Virus record (IMG/VR): IMGVR_UViG_3300034062_006900
Span: 12,753-76,752 of that record
Strand: one strand, 5' to 3'
Length of the DNA stretch: 64,000 nucleotides
Source: a virus
Below, one piece after another: positions 6,420 to 59,979 of this stretch (its first letter is position 1; each line of letters opens with the position of its first letter). The notes beneath the pieces were generated by a model that did no database searches, was not told the DNA's origin, and saw nothing but the letters and a program-made list of their open reading frames with translations. Both the position numbers and the translations under genes were made by a program.

Positions 6420-7210
6420 TGAACATCGATAATATCATATCTAAAGTTTTGGGAGAGGAGAGAGGTTTTACCCCACCCAAGAATCCTCCAAAGAATATCA
6501 AAAACATATTGAGCCAAGTTCAGTTGTTCGAAGTATACCCAAGCATATTTGCCGTTGTTATTAAAGATGACAGATTAAGAGCCAGAGTTTTTATGCGTTA
6601 CCAAGAATTCTATGAATCAGACTCAGACACATTCAGAGGTAAAGGATTCAAATGGAAAGATTATACAAAGTATTACAAAGAAAAAACTAAGAACAATATA
6701 CTCACTTACCATGAAGATTGGGCTGGTTACAACATCCCTTGTAATTCAATTGAGTCTTGTATCGCATTAATCCCCGACATTAACTATTACGATTTAATTA
6801 TGTTTAGCATCGTTGATACCGTAAGAGCTGTAGTTGGTGATGATGATTATTATTTAATTGGTATCGACCAAAGTAATGGTGAAGACCCATCTTTAATATA
6901 TCATGAGGTTGCTCACGGTCTTTGGTTCTCATCACCTGAATACAAAAGCCAACAGTCCTACAACATCGAAAACATGGACCAAGTCACAAGAAATCAAGTT
7001 GCAAAAAAGATTTCAGGTATGGGTTATGGAGAAAATGTTATAGATGATGAGATTCAAGCATATTTATCTACAGGTATTGGTGATGATATGAAAAGAATCA
7101 AAGGTATCAAAGAAGCTCAAATCCCTTTTAAAGATACTTTTGATGAATACTCAACTCAAATCAAACCTAAACAAATACCAATCGATTGGAGAACTGACTT
7201 AGACAAATGA
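6419..7210 (+). CDS. HExxH zincin-like protein
   Basis: LIYHEVAHGLW...DDEIQAY; leader MNIDNIISKVLGEE. Confidence 0.6.
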   Translation: MNIDNIISKVLGEERGFTPPKNPPKNIKNILSQVQLFEVYPSIFAVVIKDDRLRARVFMRYQEFYESDSDTFRGKGFKWKDYTKYYKEKTKNNILTYHEDWAGYNIPCNSIESCIALIPDINYYDLIMFSIVDTVRAVVGDDDYYLIGIDQSNGEDPSLIYHEVAHGLWFSSPEYKSQQSYNIENMDQVTRNQVAKKISGMGYGENVIDDEIQAYLSTGIGDDMKRIKGIKEAQIPFKDTFDEYSTQIKPKQIPIDWRTDLDK

Positions 7211-8055
7211 TGAAATTTATACCCATATTAGAAACTGTTATTTTAGAACAAAAGAGATTTAAGTTTGACCCCGAGACATATGCAAATATGGTAAGAATCA
7301 CTGAGAAGTTATGGGGATTAAGAAATAAAGAATTGACAAGAAAGACACAAGTTGATGGGTTTAAATTCAAAACTTCTGATGGAACTGACGGTTATGTCAA
7401 AATAATTATTAACCCAAGATTAAAATATATTGGATATATGGATACAAGACCTAAGGATTCTCGTGACCCAATGGATTTTGTAATGGAAGTTCAACCAAAA
7501 GAATATGTTTCGAAGAAGAATTTATTCTTAACGATATACCATGAAATGCTTCACGCTACTGACCCATCACAATCAACAAAACTTAACCAAAAGTATCAGA
7601 CAACATACAACGAAAAAAGTGACAAACAGTATTGGGGCCATCCTATCGAGTTCAGAGCAATTACAAATGAATTCTTGGAAGGTTTGGTTTTAGAATATAA
7701 GAGAAGATTCGGTAGACTTAGAAATCAAGAAAACAGAAAGTTTCTTTCTAAATCCCTTAAGAATATTCTAAACTACTTTGCTAAAGGTGAACCCTTATCT
7801 AAATTATCTCTTGATGTTATTAGCAGAATAAATGATGAAAATGTTTTAGATAATAAAATATCTCAACTTGTTTCTGATATGCCAACAGATTTCCCTGGTG
7901 TCTCTGAATTTATGGGCACAAAGGAGGAACCTTATTACATCACATACATTGAATTAATTAAGAAACATAATCCTGAAATATGGAAAAGATTCTTAACCAT
8001 GTTATACAATACATCTTATGAGATTGAAGATATTCTAAAAGAAAAAGGGGTTTAA
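7207..8055 (+). CDS. HExxH zincin-like protein
   Basis: [11 protein letters not shown]...[10 protein letters not shown]; leader ILETVILEQ. Confidence 0.6.
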
Positions 8056-8068
8056 ATTAACCCCTTTT
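8043..8068. terminator. bidirectional terminator between convergent genes
   Basis: AAAAGGGGTT-TAAATT-AACCCCTTTT. Confidence 0.7.
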
Positions 8069-10091
8069 CTTTTGCTATAATTTCTAATGTTTCTAATTTA
8101 GACTCGCTATCATCAAGAATAGCTGATTGTTCTTTAATTGCTTCTAAACATAACGCAATCATATCATAATACTTTATCTGATAATATGAATTTTCACTAT
8201 CTGATTTGAAGACTAATTCAGGAACTACGTGTTGAACTTCTTGTGCAATAAAACCTATTTCACGTTCAGTCTCTCTATTTTCTGCTTGATAATCAAAATT
8301 CTTCCAATCGTAGTATACACCTCTAAGTTTGAGAACTTTATCTAATGCTCCTTCGATGGTTTTAATTTCTTTCTTAAATCTTTTATCTGACGGTCCTGGT
8401 GCACCTGTTGCTCCTTGAGCACCTTGTGGTCCTCCTGGTCCTGGTCCTCCTGCAGGTCCTTGTCCTCCTGGAACTCCCTGGAAACCTGTTGGTCCTCCAG
8501 CTCCTCCCGGTCCTATAAATCCTGTAGGTCCAGTTGCACCTTGAGCCCCTTGTGGACCACCACCTCCACCAGGTCCCCCAGCACCTTGAGCACCTGTTGC
8601 TCCACCACCTCCTTGAGCTCCTTGGAATCCTACAGGGCCTTGAGGACCTTGGGCTCCTTGTGGACCTTGTCCTCCTTGAGAACCTTGCGAACCTTGTGGC
8701 CCAACAGAGCCTTGTCCTCCTTGCGGACCACGTCCACCTTGTGAACCTTGTGGTCCTACGGCACCTTGTGAACCTTGTGGACCTGTCGGTCCTTGAGCTC
8801 CTTGAGCACCCTGTCCACCAGCAGGACCTTGTCCACCTTGAGGACCTCGTCCTCCTTGTGAACCTTGTGGTCCTACGGCACCTTGTGAACCTTGTGGACC
8901 TGTCGGTCCTTGAGCTCCTTGAGCACCCTGTCCACCAGCAGGACCTTGTCCTCCTTGGGGACCTCGTCCTCCTTGCGAACCTTGTGGTCCAACAGCACCT
9001 TGAGCACCTTGAGGACCCGTTGGTCCTTGAGAACCTTGGGCTCCTTGACCTCCTCCAGGTCCTTGAGCTCCTTGCGAACCTTGACCTCCTTGAGAACCTT
9101 GTGGTCCTACAGGACCTTGAGCTCCTTGTGGACCTTGTCCCCCTTGAGAACCTTGGGCTCCTTGACCTCCTGTTGGTCCCTGAGCACCTTGCGAACCTTG
9201 ACCTCCTTGAGCACCTTGAGCTCCAACAGCTCCTTGGGCACCTTGCCCACCTTGTGAACCTTGACCTCCTTGAGCACCTTGTCCACCTGCAGCCCCACCA
9301 GCACCTTGAGCACCTTGACCACCTTGTGAACCTTGTGGTCCTACTGGTCCTTGGGCTCCTTGTGGTCCTTGACCACCTTGAGCACCTTGAGCACCTTGAC
9401 CTCCCGCGGTTCCTTGAGCACCTTGTGAACCTTGACCTCCTTGAGCTCCTTGAGGTCCAGTATCACCTTGTGAACCCTGTAATCCTTGACCTCCTTGAGC
9501 ACCTTGTGCTCCTTGACCTCCTGTCGGACCTTGGAACCCTTGAGCACCCTGTGCACCAGCGGCTCCCTGAGCACCCTGACCACCTGTTGTTCCCTGAGCA
9601 CCTTGACTTCCTTGTGCACCGGCAGTTCCTTGAGCACCTGTTCCTCCTGAGTTTCCTTGAGCACCTTGGAAACCTTGAGCACCTGCTAGTCCTTGAGCTC
9701 CTTGAGCACCTGTGGGACCTTGGAAACCTTGAGCTCCTGTTGCACCTTCAGTTCCTTGTGCACCTTGTCCTCCAACAACTCCTTGCGACCCAGTAAAACC
9801 TGAAGCACCTTGAAAACCTTGAGGACCTTTCGGTTGTTGGTTTCCACGCCATCCTGTAGAGTTTATGATAGGGTTAACCGCAAAATTTGTGATACTAGCA
9901 AATCTGAGGTCAGCACTAGTAATCCTAAAGTTTGGATAAGAATTATCAATGTTCAGATTCCATGATTTTGCACCTTCGAAAAATCTTAAGGTTCCAGATT
10001 GTATTCTCCACCCAATAATTGTATCATCAAAACTTTGAAAGTTTATTATAGGGACAACGGGAATTATATTAATATTTTCATTTCCGGGCAT
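8052..10091 (-). CDS. collagen-like fibre chain 1 with C-terminal peptidase S74 chaperone
   Basis: 160 uninterrupted Gly-X-Y triplets (aa 89-568), then [10 protein letters not shown]...IGFIAQEV. Confidence 0.9.
8709..8990 (-). repeat. 117-bp (13-triplet) tandem repeat in chain 1
   Basis: Sequence at 8761 recurs at 8878; boundaries approximate. Confidence 0.8.
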
Positions 10092-12196
10092 TATATTAAT
10101 TCTTTTAACACATTTATTCTTTCGAGTATTGACTCAATTTTTTTCTGATTCTCTTGAACACTACCAACACCTATACTTACCATATAATTATATTGAACTG
10201 ACTTATATCCATCATAATCTGTAAAAACAACTTCAGGTAAAACCTCTTCCAAATCTTGAGCAATAAATCCTATCGAAGAACCTGTAAAAGCAAACTTATT
10301 TAAATTTAGTTTATTGTTCTTTATTTTATCATGTTCTTCATCCCATGTAAAAGAAACTCCTTCAATTTGTTTTGCAATTGATAACGGATTCTCAATTTTC
10401 TTGATATTATCTTTTAACCTTCTGTCCGATGGTGGTCCTGTTGGCCCTTGAGCACCTTCAGGCCCTGTTCCTCCTGGAGGACCTGGATTACCTGTAGGTC
10501 CTGGAGGACCTGCAGCTCCTGGACCTCCTGGCCCACCTGCTGGTCCTGGAGGTCCTTGTAGTCCTTTAGGACCTGGTGCACCTGTTGGTCCTGTTCCACC
10601 TCCTGGTCCTGGAGGACCTTGAGCACCTTGACCTCCTGTTCCACCTGTTGCACCAGCAGCTCCTCCTGTTCCTGTAAATCCTTGAGCCCCTATAAAACCT
10701 GGCGGTCCTACAGCTCCTTGAGCACCTTGAGTTGAACTTTGAGAACCTTGAGCTCCTTGGAATCCTGTAACGCCTTGAGCTCCTTGAACACCACTTTGAG
10801 AACCTTGGGCACCTGTTGGTCCTGTTGGACCAGGAGCTCCTTGAGCACCTGTATTTCCTCCTTGCGAACCTTGAGCTCCTTGGAATCCTGTAACACCTTG
10901 AGCTCCTTGAACTCCACTTTGAGCACCTTGGGCTCCTGTTGGTCCTGTTGGACCTGGAGCTCCTTGAGCACCTGTATTTCCTCCCTGTGAACCTTGAGCT
11001 CCTTGGAATCCTGTAACTCCCTGAGCACCTTGAGTTGAACTTTGAGAGCCTTGTGCTCCTGTTGGTCCTGTTGGCCCTATATTACCTTGAGCTCCTTGAC
11101 TAGGTCCTTGTGAACCTTGAGCACCTTGAGCACCTGTGTTTCCTGTTGCACCTGGTGTTGTGCTTTGAGAACCTTGGGCTCCTGTGAAACCTGCAGGTCC
11201 TGTCGCTCCTTGAGCTCCTTGCGTCACTCCTGTAGGACCCGGATTACCTGTAAATCCTTTTGGTCCTGTTGCACCCGCAACTGCACTTTGAGCACCTTGT
11301 GCTCCTGTGCTACCAGGTGCACCTATATTACCTTGAGCACCTGTATTGGCTCCTTGAGGACCTTGTGCTCCTTGTGCTCCTGTATTACCAGTCGCACCCG
11401 CATTTCCACTTTGAGCTCCTTGAGCACCTGTGAAACCTGTCGGACCTGTTGCTCCTTGTGCTCCTGTATTGGCACCTTGTGTTCCTTGTGCACCTGTATT
11501 ACCTGTTGGACCTGTAGCACCTGCCGTTGTGCTTTGGGCACCCTGAGCACCTTGGAAACCTGTCGGTCCTGTTGCACCTTGAGCACCCTGTGTAACTCCT
11601 TGGGGGCCAGGAAAACCTGCAAATCCTTTCGGACCTTGAGAACCCTGAGCACCTGTATTTGCACCTTGTGTTCCTTGAGCACCTGTATTACCTGTAGCTC
11701 CCTGAGAACCTTGTGCTCCCTGAAACACTCCCTGTGCACCTTGAGCCCCTGTAAATCCTGTGTCTCCCTGAGCACCTGATGCACCTGAAACATTACTTGT
11801 TGGTCCCTTAGGACCTGTTGCACCTTTCGGACCCTGAGCACCTTGTGCTCCACCAGCACCTCCCTGTGCACCTTGAGCACCTTGAGCACCTGTGATACCT
11901 TGAGCTCCCGTGTCTCCTGTTAAACCCTTAATACCATCCAATGGACCAATCCATACACCTACGGTGTTTATCATGGCAACACCACCAACGTAAGTAATAC
12001 CATTTGTAATTGAAGCTCCTGATGATGTTATGTTGGTATTACTTATTTCGAAACCTGCAGATACGGTTGCTGAAGATAAAGACAAAGCACCCGTAGACTT
12101 AACGTTGAATTGTAATTTAGACGTGTCATCATCAAAAACAATATGAGGGTCTGAATTTCCAGTTGTTCCTGTAGGATATATAATAACATTAGGCAT
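10091..12196 (-). CDS. collagen-like fibre chain 2 (periodically interrupted) with S74 chaperone
   Basis: 142 triplets plus 19 tetrapeptide interruptions (aa 88-589), then [10 protein letters not shown]...IGFIAQDL. Confidence 0.9.
10740..11030 (-). repeat. 123-bp (41-aa, 13-unit) tandem repeat in chain 2
   Basis: [41 protein letters not shown] repeated; boundaries approximate. Confidence 0.8.
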
Positions 12197-14490
12197 TATG
12201 ATAATTTGTTTTCAAGTTCGTTAATTTGTTCTTTGATATCTTCTATAAATACTTGTTGTGATTTTATAGCCTCAACCAACACACTATTCAATTTATTGTA
12301 ATCAATATAATAATATCCTTCTCCATTTATTGATACCACTTCAGGAAAATATAATCTCACATTCTGAGCAATTAGTCCGATAGCGTGAAGTCTTTGATGT
12401 TTTTCGAAATATGCATATTCAGATTTATTTAAATTAGTATTCCAATCATACTCTACCGCCTCCAACATCATTACCTTTTCTAATGCGTCATATATTGTTT
12501 CAATTTTTGTTTTTAAATTGACATCAGAAAAGTAACTACCGCAATCAGAATTATAATTTCCAAACCCACAAGTATTAGCAACATCATAACACACGCTTGA
12601 TTCTACGGCTCTAGTCCAATAACTGTTCCAATCACAAGTTCCATTGACACAGTTTGTAACATTAAGATATTTGGCTTCAAGCATACCTGTTGCAGCATTA
12701 TTTTGGCGAACAGATTGAGTGGACGGCATATTACACGCCGCTGTACAGCTACCACCCACAAAAAAAGCATATATTCCACAGGTTACTGCTGCAGGTCCCG
12801 TAGCACCCTGTGCTCCTTGAGCACCTGTTGGGCCTGTTGGACCTGAAGGTCCTGGTCCTCCCGTTGGGCCACCACCACCCTGAGGACCTCTTGGTCCTGG
12901 CGGACCATCAACACCTTGGAATCCTTGTCCTCCTTGAGCACCTTGAGCACCCTGTCCACCTCCACCACCTGGAGGTCCTTGAGCACCTTGGCTTCCTTGG
13001 CCTCCACCACCTCCGGGACCGCCTTGTGGTCCTCTTGGTCCTACAAAACCTACAGGACCACCTGGTCCTCCCGGACCTGTCGCACCTGTGGGTCCTAATA
13101 ATCCTGTGTCTCCTCCTGCTCCTGTCGGACCAGCAGCACCTGTAGGCCCTAATAGACCTTGAGCTCCTGTTGGTCCTGTAGGTCCTAATGGTCCTGTTGC
13201 ACCTTGTGCTCCAGGATGTCCTGTTCCTCCACCCGCTCCTGTCGGACCAGCAGCACCTGTTGGTCCTAATAGACCTTGAGCTCCTGTTGGTCCTGTAGGT
13301 CCTAATGGTCCTGTTGCACCTTGTGCTCCAGGATGTCCTGTTCCTCCACCCGCTCCTGTCGGACCAGCAGCACCTGTTGGTCCTAATAGACCTTGAGCTC
13401 CTGTTGGTCCTGTAGGTCCTAATGGTCCTGTTGCACCTTGTGCTCCAGGATGTCCTGTTCCACCTTGTGAACCCGTGGCTCCCTTTGGTCCTGTCGGTCC
13501 TAATAAACCTGTTGCACCCGTCGGTCCTGTTGGGCCTCCTGGTCCTGTAGCACCCGTCGGTCCTGGAGGACCGTCTACTCCTTGAAATCCTGTGGCTCCT
13601 TTTGGTCCTGTGGGTCCTAAAGCACCTTGAGCTCCCACAGCTCCACCTGGACCTGTTCCTCCTGTCGCACCTTGTGCTCCAGCAAATCCTGTAGCACCTT
13701 GAGCTCCAACAGCTCCACCTGGACCTGTTGCACCTATGGCTCCTTGAGCTCCCGCAGAACCTCCTGGCCCTGTTGGTCCTGTAGCACCTTGAGCACCTGG
13801 ATTTCCCGTTCCTCCTTGAGACCCCGTTGCACCCTTTGGTCCTGTTGGTCCTAATAAACCTTGAGCACCTGTTGGTCCTGTTGCACCTGTTGCACCAGCA
13901 GCTCCTGTTGGTCCTGGTGGACCATCAACTCCTTGAAATCCTTGAGCACCTGTGTTACCCGTGGCACCTTGAGCACCTGGATGTCCTGTTGCACCTTGAG
14001 CACCCACATTACCCTGTGCACCTATTGAACCTTGAGGTCCTAAGTTACCCTGTGCTCCTATTGGACCTTGAGGTCCTGTATTTCCTTGTGAACCCGTTGG
14101 TCCAGGAGAACCATCAACTCCTTGAAAACCTTGAGCCCCTTGAGCTCCCACAGCACCTTGAGCTCCATTATGCCCTGTCGAGCCCTGAGCTCCTTGAGGA
14201 CCTTGAGCTCCTTGAAGACCTTGGGCACCTGTAAGTCCACTCAGTGAACCTACCCAATCAGCTGTTCCATTAATTACCTGAACTCCACCTACCGTATAGT
14301 TGTCTATAACATTAATAGTATTTCCTGACACAATTCCACTCGCTAATGCAAGACTCGGTGTAGAACCGAAAGTAAGTGTTCCTGTCGTTAACATTCTAAC
14401 ACGAATACTAGCACTATTAATGAAATCAATATATGGGACCCTATCAGGAGTTCTAAAAATCGCGTTACTTGGGACAATTGTTATTGGCAT
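12196..14490 (-). CDS. collagen-like fibre chain 3 with Cys-rich tip and S74 chaperone
   Basis: 161 triplets (aa 85-567), a Cys-rich domain of about 90 aa, then YFSDVNLK...IGLIAQNV. Confidence 0.9.
13116..13465 (-). repeat. 117-bp (13-triplet) tandem repeat x3 in chain 3
   Basis: AATAGACC at 13151, 13268 and 13385; boundaries approximate. Confidence 0.85.
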
Positions 14491-14616
14491 GAAAATAATT
14501 TCTTAACTATAAATACCATATAGAACAAATATCTCACATAAAATTTTAAGATATTATTCAATTGGTATTTTAAATTTATTATACTTTGATTTGTAATAAA
14601 TATTTAGAAAAAAATA

Positions 14617-15369
14617 ATGATACTAAAAAACACAAAAAACAAATTGTCCGAGATTAATTTGTTCTCAGATTATATTTTGAATCAAATACCTAACTCTGAA
14701 AGAAGTATAATCAAAATTGCTGATTGTGGTAATTTTCTAATCATCAAGGGTAAAACGACCCACAATGAATTATTAGATTTATCTAAAATAAAAACAGAAT
14801 TTTGTGAGAAGTTTAATATAAATTCTGACCCCAAATCTATTTTCAGTCATATGATAGATTTGATTGAATATGGTGTAAATCTACAACCAACAGAATCTAT
14901 CACTCACAACTACTTCAACAGCGAAAACTGTTCTTACAGTTATAAACAAGTTGAATCCTTTAAAAATAATCCTGAGTCTTCTTATGATTATTGTTTAAAG
15001 GTAAAGGAAGTCGATGAGAACGATTTGATTCTTGTTTCTGAGTTCCCTCACGGTCATTCATTAGAAATGGGAAGATTACTTTATTACTATGGTAAGAAAA
15101 TAACTTACTCAATTCCACCCACTTACCCATACACTTCTGTCGTGATGACCATCCCATCAAAAGACCCTGAAGAAAATTTCTCTGTTTATGATAATTTCTT
15201 GGAGTCTGAAGATGATAGTCTTAGGTCAGCTGTCTTAGATGTGTTTGATTTTGACATGACTGAATTAAATAAAAAACTCAAAGAAGTTGATTTCTACGAT
15301 GAGATAACCAACCCTTTGAGTGATTATGATTTCCTTAAAGAAAGGAATAAAGATTTCTTTGTTATCTAA
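14617..15369 (+). CDS. hypothetical protein, possible degenerate MetK (SAM synthetase)-like fold
   Basis: FSDYIL...LIIKGKTT, GRLLYYYGKKI and VLDVFDF weakly parallel MetK segments; no catalytic motifs. Confidence 0.35.
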   Translation: MILKNTKNKLSEINLFSDYILNQIPNSERSIIKIADCGNFLIIKGKTTHNELLDLSKIKTEFCEKFNINSDPKSIFSHMIDLIEYGVNLQPTESITHNYFNSENCSYSYKQVESFKNNPESSYDYCLKVKEVDENDLILVSEFPHGHSLEMGRLLYYYGKKITYSIPPTYPYTSVVMTIPSKDPEENFSVYDNFLESEDDSLRSAVLDVFDFDMTELNKKLKEVDFYDEITNPLSDYDFLKERNKDFFVI

Positions 15370-18017: not shown

Positions 18018-18767
18018 TTAACAATAAGATTCGGCTAACTCCCACAACCCTGTGTTAACCTTGTTGATGTTATAAAAGTTTTTCAACTCTCTCATAGAAA
18101 CGACTCTTCCTTTTTTTGAATTATACTTCATTCCACCACGAACGAACTTCTCTTGAATTACATTGAAGGTCTTCCATACACTGTTACCAACATCCCCATC
18201 TCTTTCAGGACGTAAGAACTCTTCCACGTTGAACTTAGGTATTGAACCTTTTTCCCAACGAATCATTGCAGATTTGTTTACGAAGTCTACTAATTGTCCT
18301 TCACCTAAGAATGTTGTTTCCATCTTACCAACAGACCTCTGAATAACTGGTAGTCTTTCAGCGAATTGGTCTGTGATTTCTCTCACCATACCCAAGTCAA
18401 AGTTCATGTGTCTAACTGAAATTGCGTCAGCAACTGAGGTAGGGACAGTGAGTCCGTTAGAACATACCAATCTGTATAATCCTGAACTCACAGAGAAGGA
18501 ACTAATTCCATTGTGAGAGTTTCTGATTACAGCCTCAATTAATGAGTCACCAACTTGTGGCATTTGACCATTACGAAGACGAAGCTCATGTTGAGCATAA
18601 TTTCCTTTACCGACTTGTTTGGCTGAATAAACCTTCCAACCCTCTCTATCAAAGTTTTCAACGACTTCAATAGTTGGAACGAAGGTATACTTGTCAGACA
18701 TCTTGGGTGATGGACTCGTTGCGAATACTGAAGGGGCAACTTCCTGTAGGGTTTCTATTGATAACAT
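18018..18767 (-). CDS. DUF932/DUF945 family protein
   Basis: SDKYTFVPT, NSHNG.SSF, RLVCSNGL, WKTFNVIQE. Confidence 0.85.
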   Translation of the reverse strand: MLSIETLQEVAPSVFATSPSPKMSDKYTFVPTIEVVENFDREGWKVYSAKQVGKGNYAQHELRLRNGQMPQVGDSLIEAVIRNSHNGISSFSVSSGLYRLVCSNGLTVPTSVADAISVRHMNFDLGMVREITDQFAERLPVIQRSVGKMETTFLGEGQLVDFVNKSAMIRWEKGSIPKFNVEEFLRPERDGDVGNSVWKTFNVIQEKFVRGGMKYNSKKGRVVSMRELKNFYNINKVNTGLWELAESYC

Positions 18768-18786
18768 ATCTTATTGTTTTAGAACA

Positions 18787-18818
18787 CAAAGATAAGCCCA
18801 ACAATTTAATCTGCCAAA
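18787..18818 (-). promoter_or_regulatory. Bacteroidota-type -33/-7 promoter
   Basis: TTTG-N20-TATCTTTG. Confidence 0.75.
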
Positions 18819-18819
18819 A

Positions 18820-19101
18820 TTAATTTAAGCAAATATCCCCAAATTTCGTTTTTTGAAAAATTTTTGAGTTTGTAACATTCTCTTCTATAACCTGACCGTT
18901 AAGTTCACGACAGATATCAATCATCTGTTTTTGAGTTAAGGGAACCTCTTTACCTCCATCATAGTTTGACAATGCTGTCTCTTTGACTTTAACATAAAAT
19001 TTTTCTTCCATGTTTTTTGGAACAAGATTTAATAAATCTTTCGGGTTTTCCCTGAAAAACTTCATGATGTTTGACATATATATTTCAACATCAACACTCA
19101 T
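18820..19101 (-). CDS. hypothetical protein
   Basis: Start moved to MSVDVEI. Confidence 0.7.
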   Translation of the reverse strand: MSVDVEIYMSNIMKFFRENPKDLLNLVPKNMEEKFYVKVKETALSNYDGGKEVPLTQKQMIDICRELNGQVIEENVTNSKIFQKTKFGDICLN

Positions 19102-19111
19102 GGTAATAAAT

Positions 19112-20464
19112 TTAAGATACGTTTTGTAAATCGAACATGTTGTCACCGTAACTAGTTGACCTGTCAAGAATCGATTGAGGCACTTTCACGTTTGGACTTC
19201 CCTTTAAATTCAAGAACAATAAACTCGGTAAATCATTCACACATTCAGGGATTGAGGTCAACTTAGGGTTGTTAATTAACGCCAAAAATCTCAATTTAGG
19301 TAACGTGCAAACAGAATCAGGAATACTATCGATACAATTATCAAGTAAAATCATCTTAAGATTTTTGAATCTTCCGATTGATTCAGGAATAGGAATTAAA
19401 ATGTCAGTCTTATCTCTGTTGTTGATAATTTGGAATTCAGTAATACTTTCAGGTAAAGAATCAATTAACTCATCTAAACCATAAAGAGCAATGAACTTAC
19501 CAATCGCACCATGTTGGAAACTATCAACAACAAATTTCTCACCACCAACTGTTAATCCTCTTGCAAACTCAGGTTTGAAATATTGTTTAAGTTCTTCCAT
19601 CGGACCATTAAGGAATTGAACCAAGTCAATACTATGGTCATGAACATCCATAAATTGATTAGAAGGGAAATGGAATTGATATCTATCAGCAGGTAATCCA
19701 GACTTTTGTCCTAATTTACCTTCCTTAGCTTCATTAGGGATAACAACATACAATGGACCATCTTTGATATATCTATCAAAATAAGTTAATCCAGGTCCTG
19801 ATGTGCACCATCTTGTTTCTCCTTTACTAGGTTCAAGATAATAACCACCATAGAAACATGCGGCATCTTTACCTAATTGGGTCTTGTCTGTAATTCTAAC
19901 AACAGTCCACTTGTCACCTCTATACACTACTTCACCACCAGGGTGAGCATATGTTTTTGAAGCCTCTTCTTTTTCCTGAGCACTTGCCTTAGTTTTTTCT
20001 AATGAGAAATCTTTTACAGCGTCGTAAAGTTGTGATGGAGTTAATTTGTTTAAATCTCTTTCACCTTCGATACGAGATTTAAATCTATCAAACTTCATTA
20101 AGTCATTAGTAATCTTAGCCAAATCTTCGATGTATACGTCCTTAAATCTCTTAACTTCTTCTTCATATCCTCTATCACCAGGTTGTCTTTCAGTTATAGG
20201 TAATAAGTAATTCTTGATAATCCAATTCACATACTTACCAGCTTTAACTTTTTGTAAGTCATCACTTTGAGCAGTTTCCAAATCAACATTGTTCAATTTG
20301 GTAGTAGGGTCAGCCTGAAGCAAAGTGTAGAACTCCTCCTTACTTAATTTTGGTTTAACCGATTTACCCTCTTTGTTTTTTGTTGGTTTTGTTAAAGCAT
20401 CAAACAAAACCTCAAACTTGGTTTGTTCCAAAATGACAGACTTCAATAATGACGTAAATTTCAT
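19112..20464 (-). CDS. WCT-motif protein with C-terminal leucine-rich repeats
   Basis: GETRWCTS...GPLYVVI; LRRs IPESIGRFKNLKMILL and IPDSVCTLPKLRFLAL; leader LLKSVILEQ. Confidence 0.75.
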   Translation of the reverse strand: MKFTSLLKSVILEQTKFEVLFDALTKPTKNKEGKSVKPKLSKEEFYTLLQADPTTKLNNVDLETAQSDDLQKVKAGKYVNWIIKNYLLPITERQPGDRGYEEEVKRFKDVYIEDLAKITNDLMKFDRFKSRIEGERDLNKLTPSQLYDAVKDFSLEKTKASAQEKEEASKTYAHPGGEVVYRGDKWTVVRITDKTQLGKDAACFYGGYYLEPSKGETRWCTSGPGLTYFDRYIKDGPLYVVIPNEAKEGKLGQKSGLPADRYQFHFPSNQFMDVHDHSIDLVQFLNGPMEELKQYFKPEFARGLTVGGEKFVVDSFQHGAIGKFIALYGLDELIDSLPESITEFQIINNRDKTDILIPIPESIGRFKNLKMILLDNCIDSIPDSVCTLPKLRFLALINNPKLTSIPECVNDLPSLLFLNLKGSPNVKVPQSILDRSTSYGDNMFDLQNVS

Positions 20465-20507
20465 CTAAAAGAATTTAATAATAAATATATTGTTTCAGCA
20501 AAAATAA

Positions 20508-21347
20508 CTAATAATTCAATATCAACAGCTCTTCCCCCATATTTTGTTTTGTATTTTTTTTCGCCGCAGCCGCTTTCGCAAATTCTTTTTTCTCCCATCT
20601 GTATTGGTTCTCAGGAAACCAATCGTGTAATAAGGGAAAATCATAATATGATAAACTGAAATTACCCTCAACCTGTTTCAACACATTTGCTAGTCTTTCG
20701 TGGTCTCCACTGTCAAAATCATGGTTATTATAATAGTTCTCAGTTTTCCAATATGGAGGGTCCAAATAAATATAAGTCGACGGTGAGTCATACTTTTCAA
20801 TTACTTGTTGGAAGTCCATATTCTCAACATTGGTGATTTTTTCAAAATGCGATATCCAATCAGGTTTTGATAACTTGTCCCTAAACGAAAGGTATTTGGA
20901 CCTGTATTTTCCCTTCAAATCAATAAACGATGAAGTCTCAGGCTTACTACCCGAAAAGACCTGTGTGAGGACATATGCGTATTTGGCAGCTACCTCATAG
21001 TCAGGATAGTTTATTGTAAAACCACTACCAAATATTTCCTGTTGATATGTAACAAATTTTTCCCTGAATTCAGGTGGTGTTGCATCCACACCAACTTGTT
21101 GGACTGTTATCGAATCCAACGCTCTTTGTAGTTCACTTGGATTTTGAACACATTGGAATAGATTGTAGTTTAATGGGTTGAAGTCGTTATAAACAACTCG
21201 TTTAAGATTTGGGTATTTACTCAAATCCATATTAAAGAAACACCAAAACATTCCACCGAATGTTTCTACATATGTTTCCATGTCTTCGGAATAAAATGGA
21301 ACTATCCATTTACCGATTTTTGATTTTCCTCCTATATAACTTAACAT
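20508..21347 (-). CDS. Dam-family DNA adenine methyltransferase
   Basis: YIGGKS, ETFGG, YND, DPPY, ELLILNY. Confidence 0.9.
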   Translation of the reverse strand: MLSYIGGKSKIGKWIVPFYSEDMETYVETFGGMFWCFFNMDLSKYPNLKRVVYNDFNPLNYNLFQCVQNPSELQRALDSITVQQVGVDATPPEFREKFVTYQQEIFGSGFTINYPDYEVAAKYAYVLTQVFSGSKPETSSFIDLKGKYRSKYLSFRDKLSKPDWISHFEKITNVENMDFQQVIEKYDSPSTYIYLDPPYWKTENYYNNHDFDSGDHERLANVLKQVEGNFSLSYYDFPLLHDWFPENQYRWEKKEFAKAAAAKKNTKQNMGEELLILNY

Positions 21348-21383
21348 ATAAGAATTATAATAAAAAAAATATAAAAGGCAAAT

Positions 21384-21557
21384 TTACTTGTAACAATTTT
21401 TATAAGGTCTGCAAGATGCTTTCTGTGTGAATCCCATTTCTTTACATGAGGTTGACTCACAATAGGATTTACTATATTTTCTAGGTTTCTTAAATTTCTT
21501 TTGTCCCTTCTCCTCTAAGTAGGTGTAGAGGACTCTCCTAATTTGTTCACTTAACAT
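21384..21557 (-). CDS. 57-aa basic Cys-containing protein
   Basis: MLSEQIRRVLYTYLEEK...YCESTSCKEMGFTQKASCRPYKNCYK; TATTTAT upstream. Confidence 0.65.
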   Translation of the reverse strand: MLSEQIRRVLYTYLEEKGQKKFKKPRKYSKSYCESTSCKEMGFTQKASCRPYKNCYK

Positions 21558-21567
21558 AATTATAAAT

Positions 21568-21720
21568 ATGCAGGAAACTACTACTGGTTGTAAAAAATGT
21601 AGACAACGTGATAGACGTGGTTATCAATGGTTGATGGTTGTCTTTGGATTCTACGTAATCTTTTCTTCGATTTACGGGTCAATTACTCTATTCAAAGAAT
21701 TTCTAAAACTTATTAAATAG
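21568..21720 (+). CDS. small CxxC plus transmembrane protein
   Basis: MQETTTGCKKCRQ...WLMVVFGFYVIFSSIYGSITLF. Confidence 0.6.
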   Translation: MQETTTGCKKCRQRDRRGYQWLMVVFGFYVIFSSIYGSITLFKEFLKLIK

Positions 21721-22639
21721 GTCTGTCGTATTTGAGAATTAATTTCAAATACATATCTCCATTGAAATATCCTTTCCCTCTTAACCTTAGTGGTTTAGAT
21801 GTGTCGATTGTTTTCGGTGCTTGGACAATTAATTCCCCATCTGGGTGAGGTATTGAAAACTTATCCTGTTGAATACCATTCAAGTCTAATACCAAATTGT
21901 ATATCAAATCATTATTTAATTTTTCAAATCCATCGTGTGGAACTGTCTCAATCTGAATCAACAAGTCACCATATTCTCCGTTCCTGAAATCTCCAACATC
22001 ACCAACCTTTAGAAACTGTCCACTGTCTGCACCCACAGGTATGTTAATCTTCAATTCACTTGTTGATTGTTTTGTTCCTCTACCATCACAGTAATAACAT
22101 TTATGGACTAAGGTATATCCTTTACCACCACAGGTATTACAAACAGTTCTGATTTGTTGAACCATAAATCCTGTTCCAAATTGTTTTACTTGGAATCCTG
22201 CACCTCCACATGTTTGACAAGCCTGTTGGTCTCCACCACCTCCACCACAATTATTACAATGAATATCCCTGAAGTAACTCACATTCTTTTCCGTTCCCAA
22301 GTAAGATTCTTGAGGAGTTATTTGAACTCTTATGATTTTATCTGGTGCACTTTTTCTTCTTGATTGTTGTTGTCTGAATCCATTAGCCCCTCCAAACATT
22401 TGACTGAACATGTTTTCAAAGTCACTACCAGCATACGGATTAGTCTTTCTTTGATTGTATTGTTGTCTTTTCTCAGTATTACCTAACGTTTCATACGCCT
22501 CATTAATCTCTTTGAATTTTTCAGCTCCATCGGGATTAACATCAGGATGAAACTTTTTGGATAGACTTCTATAACTTTTTTTTATGTCCTCATCTGAAGC
22601 ATTCTCTTCAACTTCTAAAATTTTGTAGTAATCTTTCAT
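21713..22639 (-). CDS. dnaJ: DnaJ chaperone
   Basis: J domain with HPD, four CxxCxGxG repeats and a C-terminal domain. Confidence 0.95.
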   Translation of the reverse strand: MKDYYKILEVEENASDEDIKKSYRSLSKKFHPDVNPDGAEKFKEINEAYETLGNTEKRQQYNQRKTNPYAGSDFENMFSQMFGGANGFRQQQSRRKSAPDKIIRVQITPQESYLGTEKNVSYFRDIHCNNCGGGGGDQQACQTCGGAGFQVKQFGTGFMVQQIRTVCNTCGGKGYTLVHKCYYCDGRGTKQSTSELKINIPVGADSGQFLKVGDVGDFRNGEYGDLLIQIETVPHDGFEKLNNDLIYNLVLDLNGIQQDKFSIPHPDGELIVQAPKTIDTSKPLRLRGKGYFNGDMYLKLILKYDRPI

Positions 22640-35918: not shown

Positions 35919-35945
35919 AAAAACCCCACTTTGAGGGTGGGGTCT
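35919..35945 (-). terminator. repeated CCCCAC/GTGGGG terminator
   Basis: GACCCCACCCTCAAAGTGGGGTTTTT. Confidence 0.75.
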
Positions 35946-37590
35946 ATTTAATTCCTAATTTTTTTAGTATGTATGATTCTATATCTTCCTTCTTCATCGT
36001 GTAAGGTATACGGATAAGTTTGATTCCGTTTTTCTTACAGTATTGGTTTTTTATTTCATCTCTGATTTTTTGTCTCTCAAAAGCTTCTTCACCACCAAAA
36101 GTATCAATCGCCATAAAATGTTGCCTTCCATCATATTCCACGCACACATTCTTTATTGGTATGTAAAAATCGAATGGTAGTTTTCTACAAAATCTTCCTT
36201 CTTTTTTATTCGTACAATCCACAAATTTATATTGTTTTATAAAATCTATTTTTTGTTTTTCTAATATGGCTGCAATTAATTTTTCTCCAGTTGATTCGTT
36301 ACAAATTGGACATCCTTGTCCGCTTAAGTGGGCACCAGGTCTTTGTTTAAAAGTTCCATGAACCGGACAAACAATATCAACATATTTGTTTCTATTTTTA
36401 TAGTCGACTAAAGAATAATTGTATTTTTTGCCGTGAACAATTTTAGCCGACTTAATAAAATCTTCTGTGTTACTAACATTACTCTTAGATATTGATTCAA
36501 AACCACATTTTTGACATCCACTTCCACTCATATGAGCGTGAGGTGTTTGTAAAAACTCCCCATGAATTGGGCAAATAATTTTTACACGATTATTAATACC
36601 ATCGTATTCAACTTTCGAATAATCATATTTATCATCATGAACAAGATTAGATTTGTTAATAAATTCATCTTGAGTTAAACTATTTGCTTTACCAGTATTT
36701 TCTCGGGCACATTTTGGACATCCAGCACCGTCAAGTAAGTGATGTGCCGTAACTTTAAAGTCTCCGTGTTTTGGGCAGGTAACTATAACTTTTTCTGATG
36801 CCCCTTTGTATTGGGTTTTGGAAAAATCATATTTATCTCCATGAACAATTTTTATTTGTTTGAGAAATTCTTCAGGTGATTTTCTTTGTTTTTCTGCCGA
36901 GCTTTCTATTCCACATTTTGAACAACCACTACCCCTTAAATGACTTGTAGATGTTTGGAAAAATTTTCCATGTTCTGAACAAATAATTTCAATTGGTGTA
37001 TAATTGTTTTTATAAACAGATTTTGAATAATCATATTTATCTCCGTGAATTTCTTTAGCATTTTCTATGAATTTTTGGGTATTTGTTGATGTTAAAGATT
37101 CTCTCTTTGACTTCCTATTTTGAAGGTCTTTTTCTTTGGCACAGGATGGACATCCGTAACCCATTAAATGATTTCCTGGTGTTTGTCCAAAATCTCCATG
37201 AATGGGACAGGTAATGACTACTTTTTTTCCTCCTCCTTGATAATCCACTTTTTTATATCCGTATTTGTCTCCGTGCTTTTCAATCGCTTTGTTCACAAAA
37301 CTATCCTTATTACTTGTTAACTTTTCTTTAGCACTTTCACGACCACATTTTGGACAACCTTGTGGATTAACATTTGATATAAATTTATTTGGTGTTTTGG
37401 TAAATTCCCCATGTATTGGACAAACAATGGTGACAGGTTCTCCGCTATTTTTATACTTTACCTTTGAATAATCATATTTGTCTCCGTGAATTGTTTTAGC
37501 CTTTTCAATAAATTCAGGAGTAGTTGTTTTTTTTATCTCACCAATCTCCTTCGTATGTTCACGCAATATATGTCTAATCAGTTGTTTCAT
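35944..37590 (-). CDS. six Zn-ribbon (DUF723-like) repeats plus a Vsr-like nuclease domain (homing-endonuclease-like)
   Basis: Six HG.KY.Y...CPxHG...GCxxC units; GEKLI...PFDFY...EYDGRQH...KLIRIPY; start moved to MKQLIRH. Confidence 0.8.
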   Translation of the reverse strand: MKQLIRHILREHTKEIGEIKKTTTPEFIEKAKTIHGDKYDYSKVKYKNSGEPVTIVCPIHGEFTKTPNKFISNVNPQGCPKCGRESAKEKLTSNKDSFVNKAIEKHGDKYGYKKVDYQGGGKKVVITCPIHGDFGQTPGNHLMGYGCPSCAKEKDLQNRKSKRESLTSTNTQKFIENAKEIHGDKYDYSKSVYKNNYTPIEIICSEHGKFFQTSTSHLRGSGCSKCGIESSAEKQRKSPEEFLKQIKIVHGDKYDFSKTQYKGASEKVIVTCPKHGDFKVTAHHLLDGAGCPKCARENTGKANSLTQDEFINKSNLVHDDKYDYSKVEYDGINNRVKIICPIHGEFLQTPHAHMSGSGCQKCGFESISKSNVSNTEDFIKSAKIVHGKKYNYSLVDYKNRNKYVDIVCPVHGTFKQRPGAHLSGQGCPICNESTGEKLIAAILEKQKIDFIKQYKFVDCTNKKEGRFCRKLPFDFYIPIKNVCVEYDGRQHFMAIDTFGGEEAFERQKIRDEIKNQYCKKNGIKLIRIPYTMKKEDIESYILKKLGIK

Positions 37591-37614
37591 CTCACAATAA
37601 ATATCTTTGGAATT

Positions 37615-37643
37615 AAAAACCCCCACCGTTGAGGGTGAGGGTT
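37615..37643 (-). terminator. repeated CCCCAC/GTGGGG terminator
   Basis: AACCCTCACCCTCAACGGTGGGGGTTTTT. Confidence 0.75.
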
Positions 37644-38648: not shown

Positions 38649-38718
38649 TTGTGAATACAAAGATAATTACAACCAACCAATCCACCAAATAAAAAAAGTC
38701 CCACTATTGTGAGACTTT
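38649..38718 (-). promoter_or_regulatory. sbcC terminator fused to a -33/-7 promoter
   Basis: AGTCTCAC-AATA-GTGGGACT plus T run, then TTTG-N20-TATCTTTG. Confidence 0.75.
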
Positions 38719-41082
38719 TGATACATTATCAGTTTTTGTAATATGAACTACATTATCCGCCCAATTTGAGATTAATGGGTTGTGGCTAATCACAAATATC
38801 TTTTCGAAATAATCCTTTAACTTCATAAAGAAGTCCCCAACCATCTCAAGGTTATCATTAGAAACCTTACCCCAAGTCTCATCGTAAACTGATATGTTTG
38901 GTTTTGGAAGTGAACATACCTTAGCCAATACAGCTCTGATAGCCAACGCTCCCACAGTCTTCTCATATCCTGAACCTGCGGTCATAGGTTTTTCGATACC
39001 TGTTCCGTTATCAATCATGATGAAGTCAACCTCATTCTTGTCATTGATACGAATCTCCAAGTTGAAGAAACAAGAGTCTTGAAGTAATCTTTGAAGTTCA
39101 GAGTTAATCAATGGCATCATTGTCTTCATGATAACTTTTGTGATTCCATTCTTTCCGAATACCTCAAGATATATTTTGTATATCTTTTCTCTTTCGAATT
39201 CTTCGGCAATCTTTAGGATGGTCTCGTTGTTCTTTTCAATTCGAGCTTGAAGATTTTCAATCTGAGTTGAATTGGTTGTTTGAGTTCTCTCATACCCTCT
39301 CTTCTCAGAAATCAATTCATCAATTCTCATTTCGGCTTTAACCAACTGAGCTTCAATCTCATTATTCTTCTTAATCTTATCTTGAACTTCTTCGTATCTC
39401 CTTAACTTGTCTTCAGATTGTTCCAATTTTAAATTATTGGCTTCAAGAGTCGCCTCATATTTTTCCTTAACAAGTTTCGCTCTTTCATATTCATCAAAGT
39501 CTTTCTTAAGTTGAGTAAAAGATTCTTCTTTCTTTTCAAGGCCTTCAATTTCTTTTTTGAATTCCTTAACAAGTTTTTTATATCCTTCAAGTTGGTCAAT
39601 CTTTTTCTTGGTCAACTCAGCTTCCATCAATTTGATTCCACAGTGTTCACACTGAATTCCATCACCATATTTTTCAATAAGGTCTTGGATTTCTTCCACC
39701 TTATTCTCACAGGTTACTTGTTCAGCAAAACGGGATTTGATAACTTCTTTAACCGCATCGTGTCTATCTTCATGATAAAACTCTTTTGGTTCAGATATTT
39801 TAACATCATCAATCTGACCTTGGATTCTTCTTCCAACTACTTTAAATTCGTCAATCTGACCCTTAAGTCTTTCAGGATTCAGAATAACCAAATCTTGGTC
39901 TAAGTCAGTGAATTTTGATTTCAATAAGTCATCCTTATAAGTTTGACCCTTTTGTAATCTCTTGTCAACATCCTTGATTTTGGTAACAGCCTCTGCAATT
40001 TCATTCTCGAGTCTTTCAATTTCTTCTTTTGACGTGGTGCTATCTTGTTTTAAGGATTCTGTATTGTATACGTTGGATAACATACCTTTTGAAAACTCAG
40101 AATAGATTTCTTTTCCCGTCTCTTCTTTCTTCTTTAAGAATTCAAGACCCAAGAATCTACTTAACACCTGACCACGAGCTGTTGGTTTTGCTTCCAACAA
40201 ATCCTCAAGGTTTGACGCTGTCGTTACAATGGTCATCAAGAAGTCATCCATCTCACCAATTGATGTTTTGATAAAGTTCTCAGTCTCCCTTCTTTGTTCA
40301 CCAGTGAAGTTCTGTAATTGACCGTCAGCCAACTTCTTGAAGAAGTCCAACTCAGTCTTAACATTCCATTCACCAGCCTTAGATTTTTTTCTTTCAATCT
40401 TTCGAGCGATGATATATTCCTCGCCATCAATGATGATGTCACCCTTAACTGATACCACATTCTTATCTGTGAATCTGTTGAAGATTTCCTCAGCCTTCTG
40501 AGTCTTGGTTGTCGTGTTGAAGAATAAGAACAATAACAAGTCCACGGTCAATACCGTCTTACCTCCGAAGTTCGGTGGGTCTGATTCAACCACTGTGATA
40601 CCATTACATTTATCAAAATCGATAACCTGGTTCTCACCATACGATAAGAAGTTACTGAATTCAATCTTCTTGATATACCATCTTTTGAATGGTGTAACCT
40701 CAACCTCATTAGCCATCATTCTGTTTTCAACAGCAAGGTCAATGTTCATGACTTGGTCATAAAACTGGTCTTGTCCTTTTGACTCAAGAAGAGATTTGAT
40801 AAGTTCTTTCTGATAGTTCTTATCCATAATGTTAACCGCTACATCGATTGTCTGTTGAGTTTCCTCAGTTGTCTTCGCCTTGGTTATAACATTGATATTT
40901 GCGGAACTATACTTCTTCATGAAGTATTGTTTCACAGACTTGATTCTTTCTTGGGTGAAATTCTCTGGAGCATCCTCCCATATTACTTGTATGTTAGGAT
41001 TCTCCAAAGTAGATATATCTAATTTTGTTGACATATGTTTGTAGTTATACTCTGGATGTGGATTGAATAAATCCCATTTCAT
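38704..41082 (-). CDS. sbcC: SbcC/Rad50 (gp46-like) ATPase
   Basis: NFLSYG, Walker A NFGGKT, CEHC hook, SGYEK signature, VYDE, ISH. Confidence 0.92.
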   Translation of the reverse strand: MKWDLFNPHPEYNYKHMSTKLDISTLENPNIQVIWEDAPENFTQERIKSVKQYFMKKYSSANINVITKAKTTEETQQTIDVAVNIMDKNYQKELIKSLLESKGQDQFYDQVMNIDLAVENRMMANEVEVTPFKRWYIKKIEFSNFLSYGENQVIDFDKCNGITVVESDPPNFGGKTVLTVDLLLFLFFNTTTKTQKAEEIFNRFTDKNVVSVKGDIIIDGEEYIIARKIERKKSKAGEWNVKTELDFFKKLADGQLQNFTGEQRRETENFIKTSIGEMDDFLMTIVTTASNLEDLLEAKPTARGQVLSRFLGLEFLKKKEETGKEIYSEFSKGMLSNVYNTESLKQDSTTSKEEIERLENEIAEAVTKIKDVDKRLQKGQTYKDDLLKSKFTDLDQDLVILNPERLKGQIDEFKVVGRRIQGQIDDVKISEPKEFYHEDRHDAVKEVIKSRFAEQVTCENKVEEIQDLIEKYGDGIQCEHCGIKLMEAELTKKKIDQLEGYKKLVKEFKKEIEGLEKKEESFTQLKKDFDEYERAKLVKEKYEATLEANNLKLEQSEDKLRRYEEVQDKIKKNNEIEAQLVKAEMRIDELISEKRGYERTQTTNSTQIENLQARIEKNNETILKIAEEFEREKIYKIYLEVFGKNGITKVIMKTMMPLINSELQRLLQDSCFFNLEIRINDKNEVDFIMIDNGTGIEKPMTAGSGYEKTVGALAIRAVLAKVCSLPKPNISVYDETWGKVSNDNLEMVGDFFMKLKDYFEKIFVISHNPLISNWADNVVHITKTDNVSKVSQ

Positions 41083-59924: not shown

Positions 59925-59979
59925 AAAGTTTTATTTGATTAAAAATAATGTTTTACTAATTTTAAGTAAACTGATTAAC

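Follow-up and report, generated by a model that had tools for sequence, protein, structure and literature searches.

A stretch of viral DNA of 64,000 nucleotides (positions 12,753 to 76,752 of the IMG/VR record IMGVR_UViG_3300034062_006900; hereafter the window) contains an operon of three genes, c1, c2, and c3, each encoding a long collagen-like helix that ends in a Peptidase_S74 domain. We consider it probable that these genes each encode a different strand of one ABC heterotrimeric collagen fibre, which would be registered by its S74 domains and would carry one tip, on c3. We observed that the helices of c3, c2, and c1 in the window are 161, 161, and 160 triplet-equivalents long. Similar equality recurs in relatives over a wide range of helix lengths (Table 1).

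Anatomy of the three-gene operon

Each of the three proteins starts with an N-terminal domain of ~85 residues, continues with ~160 Gly-X-Y triplets, and ends in an S74 domain (coordinates in Table 2). The source is a 76.7-kb IMG/VR record with a CheckV completeness of 26%. The G+C content of c1, c2, and c3 is ~49%, compared to ~33% for the whole record. All three proteins matched Pfam Collagen (PF01391; E = 8.6e-38 to 8.7e-48, with c1 at 8.6e-38). The N-terminal domains are homologous to each other (25-39% identity by alignment). Both junctions in the trio are stop/start overlaps (TAATG), a single hairpin follows c1, and the flanking genes lie on the opposite strand; c1, c2, and c3 therefore form one operon. 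We did not obtain an informative Pfam or PHROG match for the N-terminal domains or for the flanking genes, the two weak PHROG matches of the neighbours being to families of unknown function. Searched as whole proteins, c1, c2, and c3 gave Pfam matches to Collagen and S74 only, and their N-terminal domains had no PHROG match.

The helix of c2 is interrupted periodically. Its extra residues are mostly Thr, Gln, or Ser, are spaced ~6-7 triplets apart, and create 19 breaks of 1 or 4 residues. The c2 tandem repeat of 123 nucleotides corresponds to 13 triplets plus 2 extra residues.

A preliminary description of this DNA, made from its letters and open reading frames, had placed an S74 cleavage motif immediately after the last triplet of chains 1 and 2. 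We located the motif at exactly this position in both proteins (GAPGP/SDKRFK in c1 and GPTGPP/SDRRLK in c2, with the slash marking the predicted cut). The same description had reported a Cys-rich domain of about 90 residues before the motif of chain 3, and this domain measured 87 residues with 8 Cys and ended in GSYF/SDVNLK. The span that it gave for the system (8052-12790) ends precisely at the boundary between the c3 helix and the c3 tip, and thus leaves out the c3 helix and N-terminal domain (12790-14490). The arrangement described here is far beyond chance and recurs in dozens of related contigs.

Helix length and repeat period are matched across the three chains

The c1-c2-c3 trio was present at every related locus with enough flanking sequence. 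The gene order was nearly always c3-c2-c1, with the exception of locus L076 (c2-c3-c1). A tree of 110 S74 domains resolved three clades (local support 98/99/98), and every genome contributed a single gene to each of them. We conclude that the triplication occurred long ago and that the set has since stayed complete in every lineage, without losses or additions. The periodic one-residue breaks were always present in the c2 orthologues.

We expressed helix length in triplet-equivalents, defined as Gly-X-Y triplets plus the Gly-less three-residue units within short breaks. A two-residue unit counted as 1 and single extra residues as 0. The rule for two-residue units was added after the first tally; it left the matched trios unaffected and moved several mismatches nearer to whole repeat units. 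By this measure, the chains differed by no more than 3 triplet-equivalents in 12 of 19 non-redundant complete trios, over lengths of 98-273 (Table 1). Chain lengths were correlated across the 19 trios (Pearson r = 0.95-0.99). In a permutation test, none of 20,000 permutations reached 12 matched trios (maximum, 3).

Table 1. Helix lengths of the three chains, in triplet-equivalents, in the window and at related loci
Locus	c3	c2	c1	Remark
Window	161	161	160	
L006	98	99	98	
L036	118	120	118	
L040	142	142	141	
L039	144	143	142	
L112	158	158	157	
L096	168	169	168	
L041	195	195	194	with seven copies
L038	215	216	215	
L076	221	223	222	
L013	254	253	252	
L037	270	270	273	
L093	306	305	>=306	c1 cut by contig end

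Within the clade to which the window belongs, where the c3 S74 domains are 85-91% identical, helix lengths were ~140, 161, and 198, and the partner chains followed. Because the lengths shift together inside this close clade, shared ancestry alone cannot explain the match.

The matched trios also indicated which quantity is held equal. The difference between c2 and its partners was +0.6 triplet-equivalents, compared to +6.5 triplets for residue span; c2 bulges by ~1 extra residue per 7 triplets. As c2 is matched in triplets yet longer in residues, what is locked is how many steps the helix has and not its contour length. Globular inserts did not disturb the count. The c3 and c1 helices of L004 measured 173 and 172 despite a 180-residue PA14 domain in the middle of the c3 helix, and the match in L076 (223/221/222 for c2/c3/c1) was kept despite inserts of 165 and 67 residues in c2. 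The tandem super-repeat had a shared period as well: it was 13 triplet-equivalents in all three chains of the window, L007, and L009, whereas the three chains of every other lineage shared a period of 14 or 7. A locked count that ignores inserts, together with a common period, would be expected if the chains were tied together at both ends, and not of fibres that merely need a similar reach.

The PA14 domain of L004 (8756-9295; a carbohydrate-binding domain, Pfam E = 2.6e-11) follows 91 of the 173 c3 triplets, and the partner chains have no corresponding break there. PA14 inserts in the c3 helix were also observed in L015 and L016/L017. A beta-rich domain of ~230-300 residues with a weak PA14-like match lies just past the first few triplets in L011 (1913-2608), L076 (4934-5656), P0007, P0008, and P0012 (the context of proteins P0007-P0017 was drawn from IMG/VR and metagenome scans). 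Only one chain of a trio ever carries this domain: c2 in L076 and c3 in some lineages.

Two further patterns were set aside. Each GVD triplet of c3 has a Lys or Arg of c2 one to two triplets upstream in the window and in L009. We rejected this charge complementarity as independent support because both partners flank a GF triplet that the two chains have in common at one index, as expected from paralogue homology, and because the other lineages have too few charges. The phase of the c2 bulges relative to the GGQ triplets of c1 showed a constant offset of -1 in L013 and L006, and not in the clade with the 13-triplet period. It was not counted because indels of whole repeat units preserve phase anyway.

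Helices without a tip are confined to trios

In the IMG/VR scans, an S74 domain directly after the helix was seen only inside trios or at loci shortened by a contig end. Single collagen-S74 genes carried their own domain of 20-879 residues between helix and S74 (the poorly parsed L173 excepted). Paired collagen-S74 genes (L062, L084, L149, and L165) each had their own tip, and the complete pairs were unequal (38 vs 192, 190 vs 69, and 126 vs 139). A fibre consisting of a tipless homotrimeric rod would be odd; tipless chains make sense as two of the three strands of one fibre.

We observed a second family of trios (L067 and L190-L193) with unbroken helices of 135-203 triplets, an N-terminal domain of ~35 residues, and a spacer of 24-32 residues before S74. 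Its helices were matched as well, with counts of 170/170/169, 166/166/167, 136/135/137, and 202/202/203. The three S74 domains of this family cluster together and apart from those of the first family. The second family is therefore a separate triplication, and the design arose at least twice.

The 30 N-terminal triplets had 4-7% Pro at the X and Y positions and the 30 C-terminal triplets 16-20%, a rise seen in all three chains (mean of 12 lineages). The c1 helix is uncharged and, in its middle part, has 0-13% Pro at these positions. The gradient resembles the imino-rich nucleation zone beside the procollagen C-propeptide. It backs the analogy with procollagen C-propeptides drawn in the preliminary description. 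We only infer that the S74 domains, and not the N-terminal domains, would select the chains, that they would form a heterotrimer, and that they would cut themselves off beside a collagen helix.

S74 domains and predicted self-cleavage

All three S74 domains exceeded the curated Pfam cut-off for PF13884 (22 bits). The matches were 62.8 bits for c1 (3.6e-17; residues 568-627), 57.4 bits for c2 (1.8e-15; residues 590-657), and 41.0 bits for c3 (2.3e-10; residues 655-719). The same regions matched the C-terminal ends of many tail-fibre PHROGs. The S74 domains of c1, c2, and c3 are 32-37% identical to one another.

The scissile Ser and the Lys at +5 are kept in c1 (SDKRFK), c2 (SDRRLK), and c3 (SDVNLK). 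Ser, Asp, and Lys are invariant across 18 c3 orthologues and are present in the consensus of all three S74 clades. The Ser-Lys spacing equals that of Ser1264 and Lys1269 in pb1, the protein of the L-shaped fibre of phage T5, where the Thr1263-Ser1264 bond is cleaved and Ser1264 is activated by Lys1269 (PMC4690869). The pb1 active site is complete only with an Arg that the folded beta-helix of a neighbouring chain supplies, and the pb1 chaperone contains a central trimeric coiled coil (PMC4690869). With Ser and Lys(+5) kept but no such Arg in the tipless chains, self-cleavage of S74 next to a collagen helix is plausible.

One column in a C-terminal helix of the S74 domain distinguishes the clades, with Leu for c3, Gly for c2, and Cys for c1 (>=80% conserved in each clade). 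This column hints at the kind of asymmetry expected of a mixed core. An AlphaFold2 (AF2) monomer model of the S74 part was poor (predicted local distance difference test, pLDDT, 44-61). The Foldseek match obtained with this poor model was the ICA domain of MyRF (7dc3; probability 0.89, E = 1.3).

The c3 tip

The c3 orthologues carry a tip, except at L096. The Cys framework of the tip is conserved, with one invariant Cys 3-7 residues past the helix and a second one 1-5 residues ahead of the scissile Ser. Modelled alone by AF2, the tip was a confident, compact alpha/beta monomer (pLDDT 87.6; predicted template modelling score 0.73). A tip that folds as a confident monomer and has invariant Cys near both ends fits a single looped-out domain. 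If the ends of the modelled domain are as closely spaced as we presume, they would let the c3 S74 domain join those of c1 and c2.

The tip has no recognisable fold. Foldseek gave no match in the PDB, and the best Z among 48,161 chains compared by VIA-align was 3.4, with no solved fold above this value; these results are not proof of a new fold. Matches to the tip in BFVD were exclusively to uncharacterised proteins of uncultured phages. When the tip and S74 region was compared with isolated phages, only the S74 parts of tail fibres matched (<=35% identity).

At L096 (6195-12583; 168/169/168), the c3-type chain is tipless, and all three chains consist of a bare helix followed by S74. Because of this, fibre function at L096 cannot depend on a Cys-rich tip.

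Virus group and genomic context

Ten kb of the window searched by megablast, and the neighbouring 863-residue protein searched by tblastn, had no match among isolated phages. The relatives came from IMG/VR and metagenome contigs, and the contig names suggest freshwater lakes. The record of one relative (L044; G001) is a complete genome of 321,139 bp with direct terminal repeats. It contains a 1078-residue open reading frame with a weak phage-sheath match (~51045-51389; E = 7e-7). On the linear map this sheath-like frame is >200 kb from the collagen trio, which places the trio outside the tail cluster in that genome. The window has no recognisable tail genes adjoining the trio. The group consists of uncultured jumbo phages, probably myoviruses. 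A giant-virus origin was unsupported: we found no match to a capsid protein of nucleocytoplasmic large DNA viruses, in a search that control genomes did not validate, and the 321-kb relative has the sheath-like gene.

Close to the fibre operon, the minus strand carries a run of non-structural genes (18018-22639; Table 2). Farther along the window, a large HNH/homing-endonuclease-like protein (35944-37626, minus strand; PHROG E ~1e-116) adjoins an SbcC-like nuclease subunit (38704-41082, minus strand). A 780-residue fusion on the plus strand (59935-62277) joins a GT4 glycosyltransferase (residues 203-327) to a GT9 heptosyltransferase-like part (residues 618-715). We speculate that this fusion could glycosylate virion proteins such as Thr/Ser/Gln-rich fibres.

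Table 2. Features of the fibre operon and nearby genes in window coordinates
Feature	Coordinates	Strand	Remarks
c3 gene, 764 residues, sole tip-bearing chain	12196..14490	-	Open reading frame; Pfam Collagen and Peptidase_S74; c3 S74 clade support 98
c3 N-terminal domain, residues 1-84	14239..14490	-	Aligned with c1 and c2 counterparts, 12 invariant columns; presumed virion-anchoring end
c3 collagen helix, 161 uninterrupted Gly-X-Y triplets (residues 85-567)	12790..14238	-	Tandem super-repeat of 117 nucleotides = 13 triplets
c3 tip, 87 residues, 8 Cys (residues 568-654)	12529..12789	-	Aromatic-rich; hypervariable among relatives; invariant Cys near each end
c3 S74 intramolecular-chaperone domain	12199..12528	-	Predicted cut F654/S655; Lys at +5; mechanism from PMC4690869
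c2 gene, 701 residues	10091..12196	-	Open reading frame; Pfam; c2 S74 clade support 99; start overlaps c3 stop (TAATG)
c2 collagen helix	10430..11935	-	155 triplets + 6 Gly-less pseudo-triplets = 161 triplet-equivalents; 19 single extra residues
c2 S74 domain, immediately after final triplet	10094..10429	-	Predicted cut P589/S590
c1 gene, 679 residues	8052..10091	-	Open reading frame; Pfam; c1 S74 clade support 98; start overlaps c2 stop (TAATG)
c1 collagen helix, ~160 uninterrupted triplets (residues 89-568)	8391..9827	-	Gly-/Gln-rich, Pro-poor; tandem repeat of 117 nucleotides, 7.6 copies
c1 S74 domain, immediately after final triplet	8055..8390	-	Predicted cut P567/S568
Hairpin, 10-bp, GC-containing	8043..8068		Convergent ends of c1 and plus-strand gene 7207-8055; likely bidirectional terminator closing the operon
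Upstream intergenic region, AT-rich	14491..14616	-	Between c3 and divergent gene 14617-15369; presumed operon promoter region; consensus-level promoter matches only
DUF932	18018-18767	-	Near fibre operon
Leucine-rich-repeat-ended protein	19112-20464	-	Near fibre operon
Dam-type N6-adenine methyltransferase	20508-21347	-	Near fibre operon
Full-length DnaJ (J, zinc-finger, and C-terminal domains)	21713-22639	-	Near fibre operon

Discussion

At first, a heterotrimer appeared the less likely arrangement, given the heavy interruption of c2 and the fact that the known S74 fibres are all homotrimers. The comparative evidence (the length and period lock, the restriction of tipless chains to trios, and strict co-inheritance) now favours the three-chain fibre with one tip that the preliminary description had proposed, with the amendment that a single tip is not universal, as L096 shows. 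In the fibre that we envisage, the S74 domains of c1, c2, and c3 would meet first as one trimer. This trimer would set the Pro-rich C-terminal triplets in register, and the helix would then zip toward the N-terminus. The three paralogous N-terminal domains of ~85 residues would close the opposite end and attach the fibre to the virion. Self-removal of each S74 domain, by a cut before its Ser, would leave a mature rod with one Cys-rich c3 tip, presumably an adhesin, beside which c1 and c2 would end bare. In c2, the ~19 extra residues would be looped out without lengthening the helix. On the virion, the fibre would measure ~138 nm (161 triplets at 0.86 nm each).

Three separate homotrimeric fibres, namely a tipped c3, a c2 kinked by periodic G1G/G4G breaks, and a plain c1, seem unlikely to us as an explanation. 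Their equal length would have to come from an architectural constraint such as equivalent docking sites, a fixed-length tail alongside, or side-by-side bundling. The homotrimer is the default arrangement in every characterised S74 fibre and prokaryotic collagen, and the homologous N-terminal domains could each form a symmetric trimer. Breaks of the G1G and G4G type are also known from homotrimeric and from animal non-fibrillar collagens, which tolerate them where all three chains have them at one level. However, three such fibres would have no reason to match within 1-3 triplets (~1%), or to agree in their number of triplets when the residue span of c2 is the longer by 3-10 triplets. The uncompensated globular inserts and the joint switch of period from 14 to 13 would also go unexplained. 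Two of the three fibres would lack a distal domain, a state absent from the complete single and paired collagen-S74 genes in our sample. As stand-alone helices, the Pro-poor, uncharged c1 and the broken c2 would look weak.

Co-assembly without a strict 1:1:1 composition, for example c1 and c3 as A2B or AB2 with a separate c2 fibre, or a nine-chain cable of homotrimers joined at their ends, is quite improbable. Its appeal is that c2 is the structural outlier; neither c1 nor c3 has an interruption, and their lengths agree in 14 of the 19 trios. Against this, c2 is locked to the triplet-equivalent count and period of its partners, the stop/start overlaps point to synthesis in equimolar amounts, and the three S74 clades are equally strictly co-inherited. 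We regard it as highly improbable that the length match is an artefact of recent duplication, of gene conversion between paralogues, or of assembly error. Collagen repeats are prone to misassembly, and contigs with the same c3 and a near-identical c2 S74 domain do differ in c2 length. But the paralogues are old (low S74 identity, separate clades, and different helix composition), an assembly error would break equality rather than make it, and the match recurs across many metagenomes and in the second family.

Several observations weigh against a single ABC fibre. The helices of 7 of the 19 trios were mismatched by >=6 triplets, with deviations of -64, -29, -14, -13, -13, -13, -7, +6, +14, and +15. 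Most of these deviations lie near multiples of the 7-, 13-, or 14-triplet repeat unit. Mismatched lineages include L004, L005, L016, L018, L034, and L086. In three comparisons (L018/L019, L005/L026+L027, and L029/L037), contigs with the same c3 and an identical or nearly identical c2 S74 domain had c2 helices that differed by 7-35 triplets, and in L029/L037 and L018/L019 the longer c2 version was the one that matched its partners. Because such contigs differ in c2 length, we attribute most mismatches to collapse of repeats in short-read assembly or to population variants. The in-phase repeats and the co-location of c2 Lys with c3 Asp can be explained by positional homology of paralogues and whole-unit indels. 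To our knowledge, a one-residue bulge every 6-7 triplets beside two unbroken partners has no characterised precedent at such density. We likewise know of no S74 heterotrimer, S74 fibres being known to us only as homotrimers. The cut in T5 depends on two residues of the beta-helix in front, an Arg and an Asp, and c1 and c2, which have Gly-X-Y at this place, have neither; c3 has an Asp 6 residues upstream of its scissile Ser. At L096 no chain has a tip. Finally, the support is comparative, and the heterotrimer itself is predicted.

The proposed ABC fibre shares features with several known systems. Its S74 domains resemble those of K1F endosialidase and T5 pb1 in being C-terminal PF13884 domains of ~110 residues with a conserved Ser/Lys(+5), and they would share the role of trimerising, assisting folding, and being removed. 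The known S74 fibres are each the product of one gene and form a homotrimer, with a triple beta-helix or beta-prism and its Arg/Asp fold sensor in front of the domain, whereas c1, c2, and c3 are three diverged paralogues in one operon, and two of their S74 domains directly follow collagen with no beta-structure between. Collagen repeats followed by a C-terminal S74 domain are a known architecture in polinton-like viruses, virophages, and other phages (PMC12220804). Those proteins have the same domain order, but they are described as products of single genes and assumed to be homotrimeric. In the literature, we found no report of a three-gene, length-locked collagen-S74 set or of a heterotrimer of this sort.

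Fibrillar procollagen (type I alpha1/alpha2) offers a likeness in its C-terminal domain, which selects and registers chains and is then removed, and in its imino-rich nucleation and C-to-N folding (PMC8968730). It also combines different chains with equal helix length. The two systems differ in that their folds are unrelated, procollagen is processed by a separate proteinase and the phage chains would be self-cleaved, procollagen is A2B and the phage fibre would be ABC, and the phage trio has no hydroxyproline machinery in sight. The likeness to procollagen is one of analogy, not homology. Among bacterial proteins, Scl1/Scl2 and BclA have long Gly-X-Y helices without hydroxyproline next to a trimerisation domain, and BclA has Thr-rich triplets. 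They differ in that the characterised ones are all homotrimers (PMC8968730) and in that the Scl trimerisation domain is N-terminal and not self-removing.

Complement C1q, like the phage trio, is encoded by three tandem paralogous genes and is an ABC heterotrimer with a collagen stalk and a C-terminal trimerising domain. At the kink of its stalk, one chain has a single-residue insertion and another a Gly substitution. C1q differs in that its gC1q head is retained and binds, its stalk is ~80 residues long, and it has one interruption compared to 19-44 in the phage c2 chains.

Heterotrimeric collagen is regarded as an animal invention, with prokaryotic and viral collagens as homotrimers, and the recombinant production of defined heterotrimers is an unsolved practical problem (PMC8968730). 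We lean toward the broader proposal that aquatic phages make an ABC heterotrimeric collagen whose co-translated chains are selected and registered by a self-excising S74 heterotrimer, with exactly one receptor-binding tip and with a residue looped out of one chain about every two turns. If this is true, heterotrimeric collagen would have its first natural example outside animals, and S74 chaperones would have their first heteromeric one. A small, self-removing module of bacterial type would then set chain composition and register without hydroxyproline, which would be useful for collagen engineering. The dozens of lineages, with helices from 98 to ~306 triplets, would amount to a natural experiment on how a shared length is kept despite repeat expansion and contraction. 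For the phages themselves, the finding would give S74 chaperones a wider role and would provide a route by which a threefold fibre presents one asymmetric adhesin.

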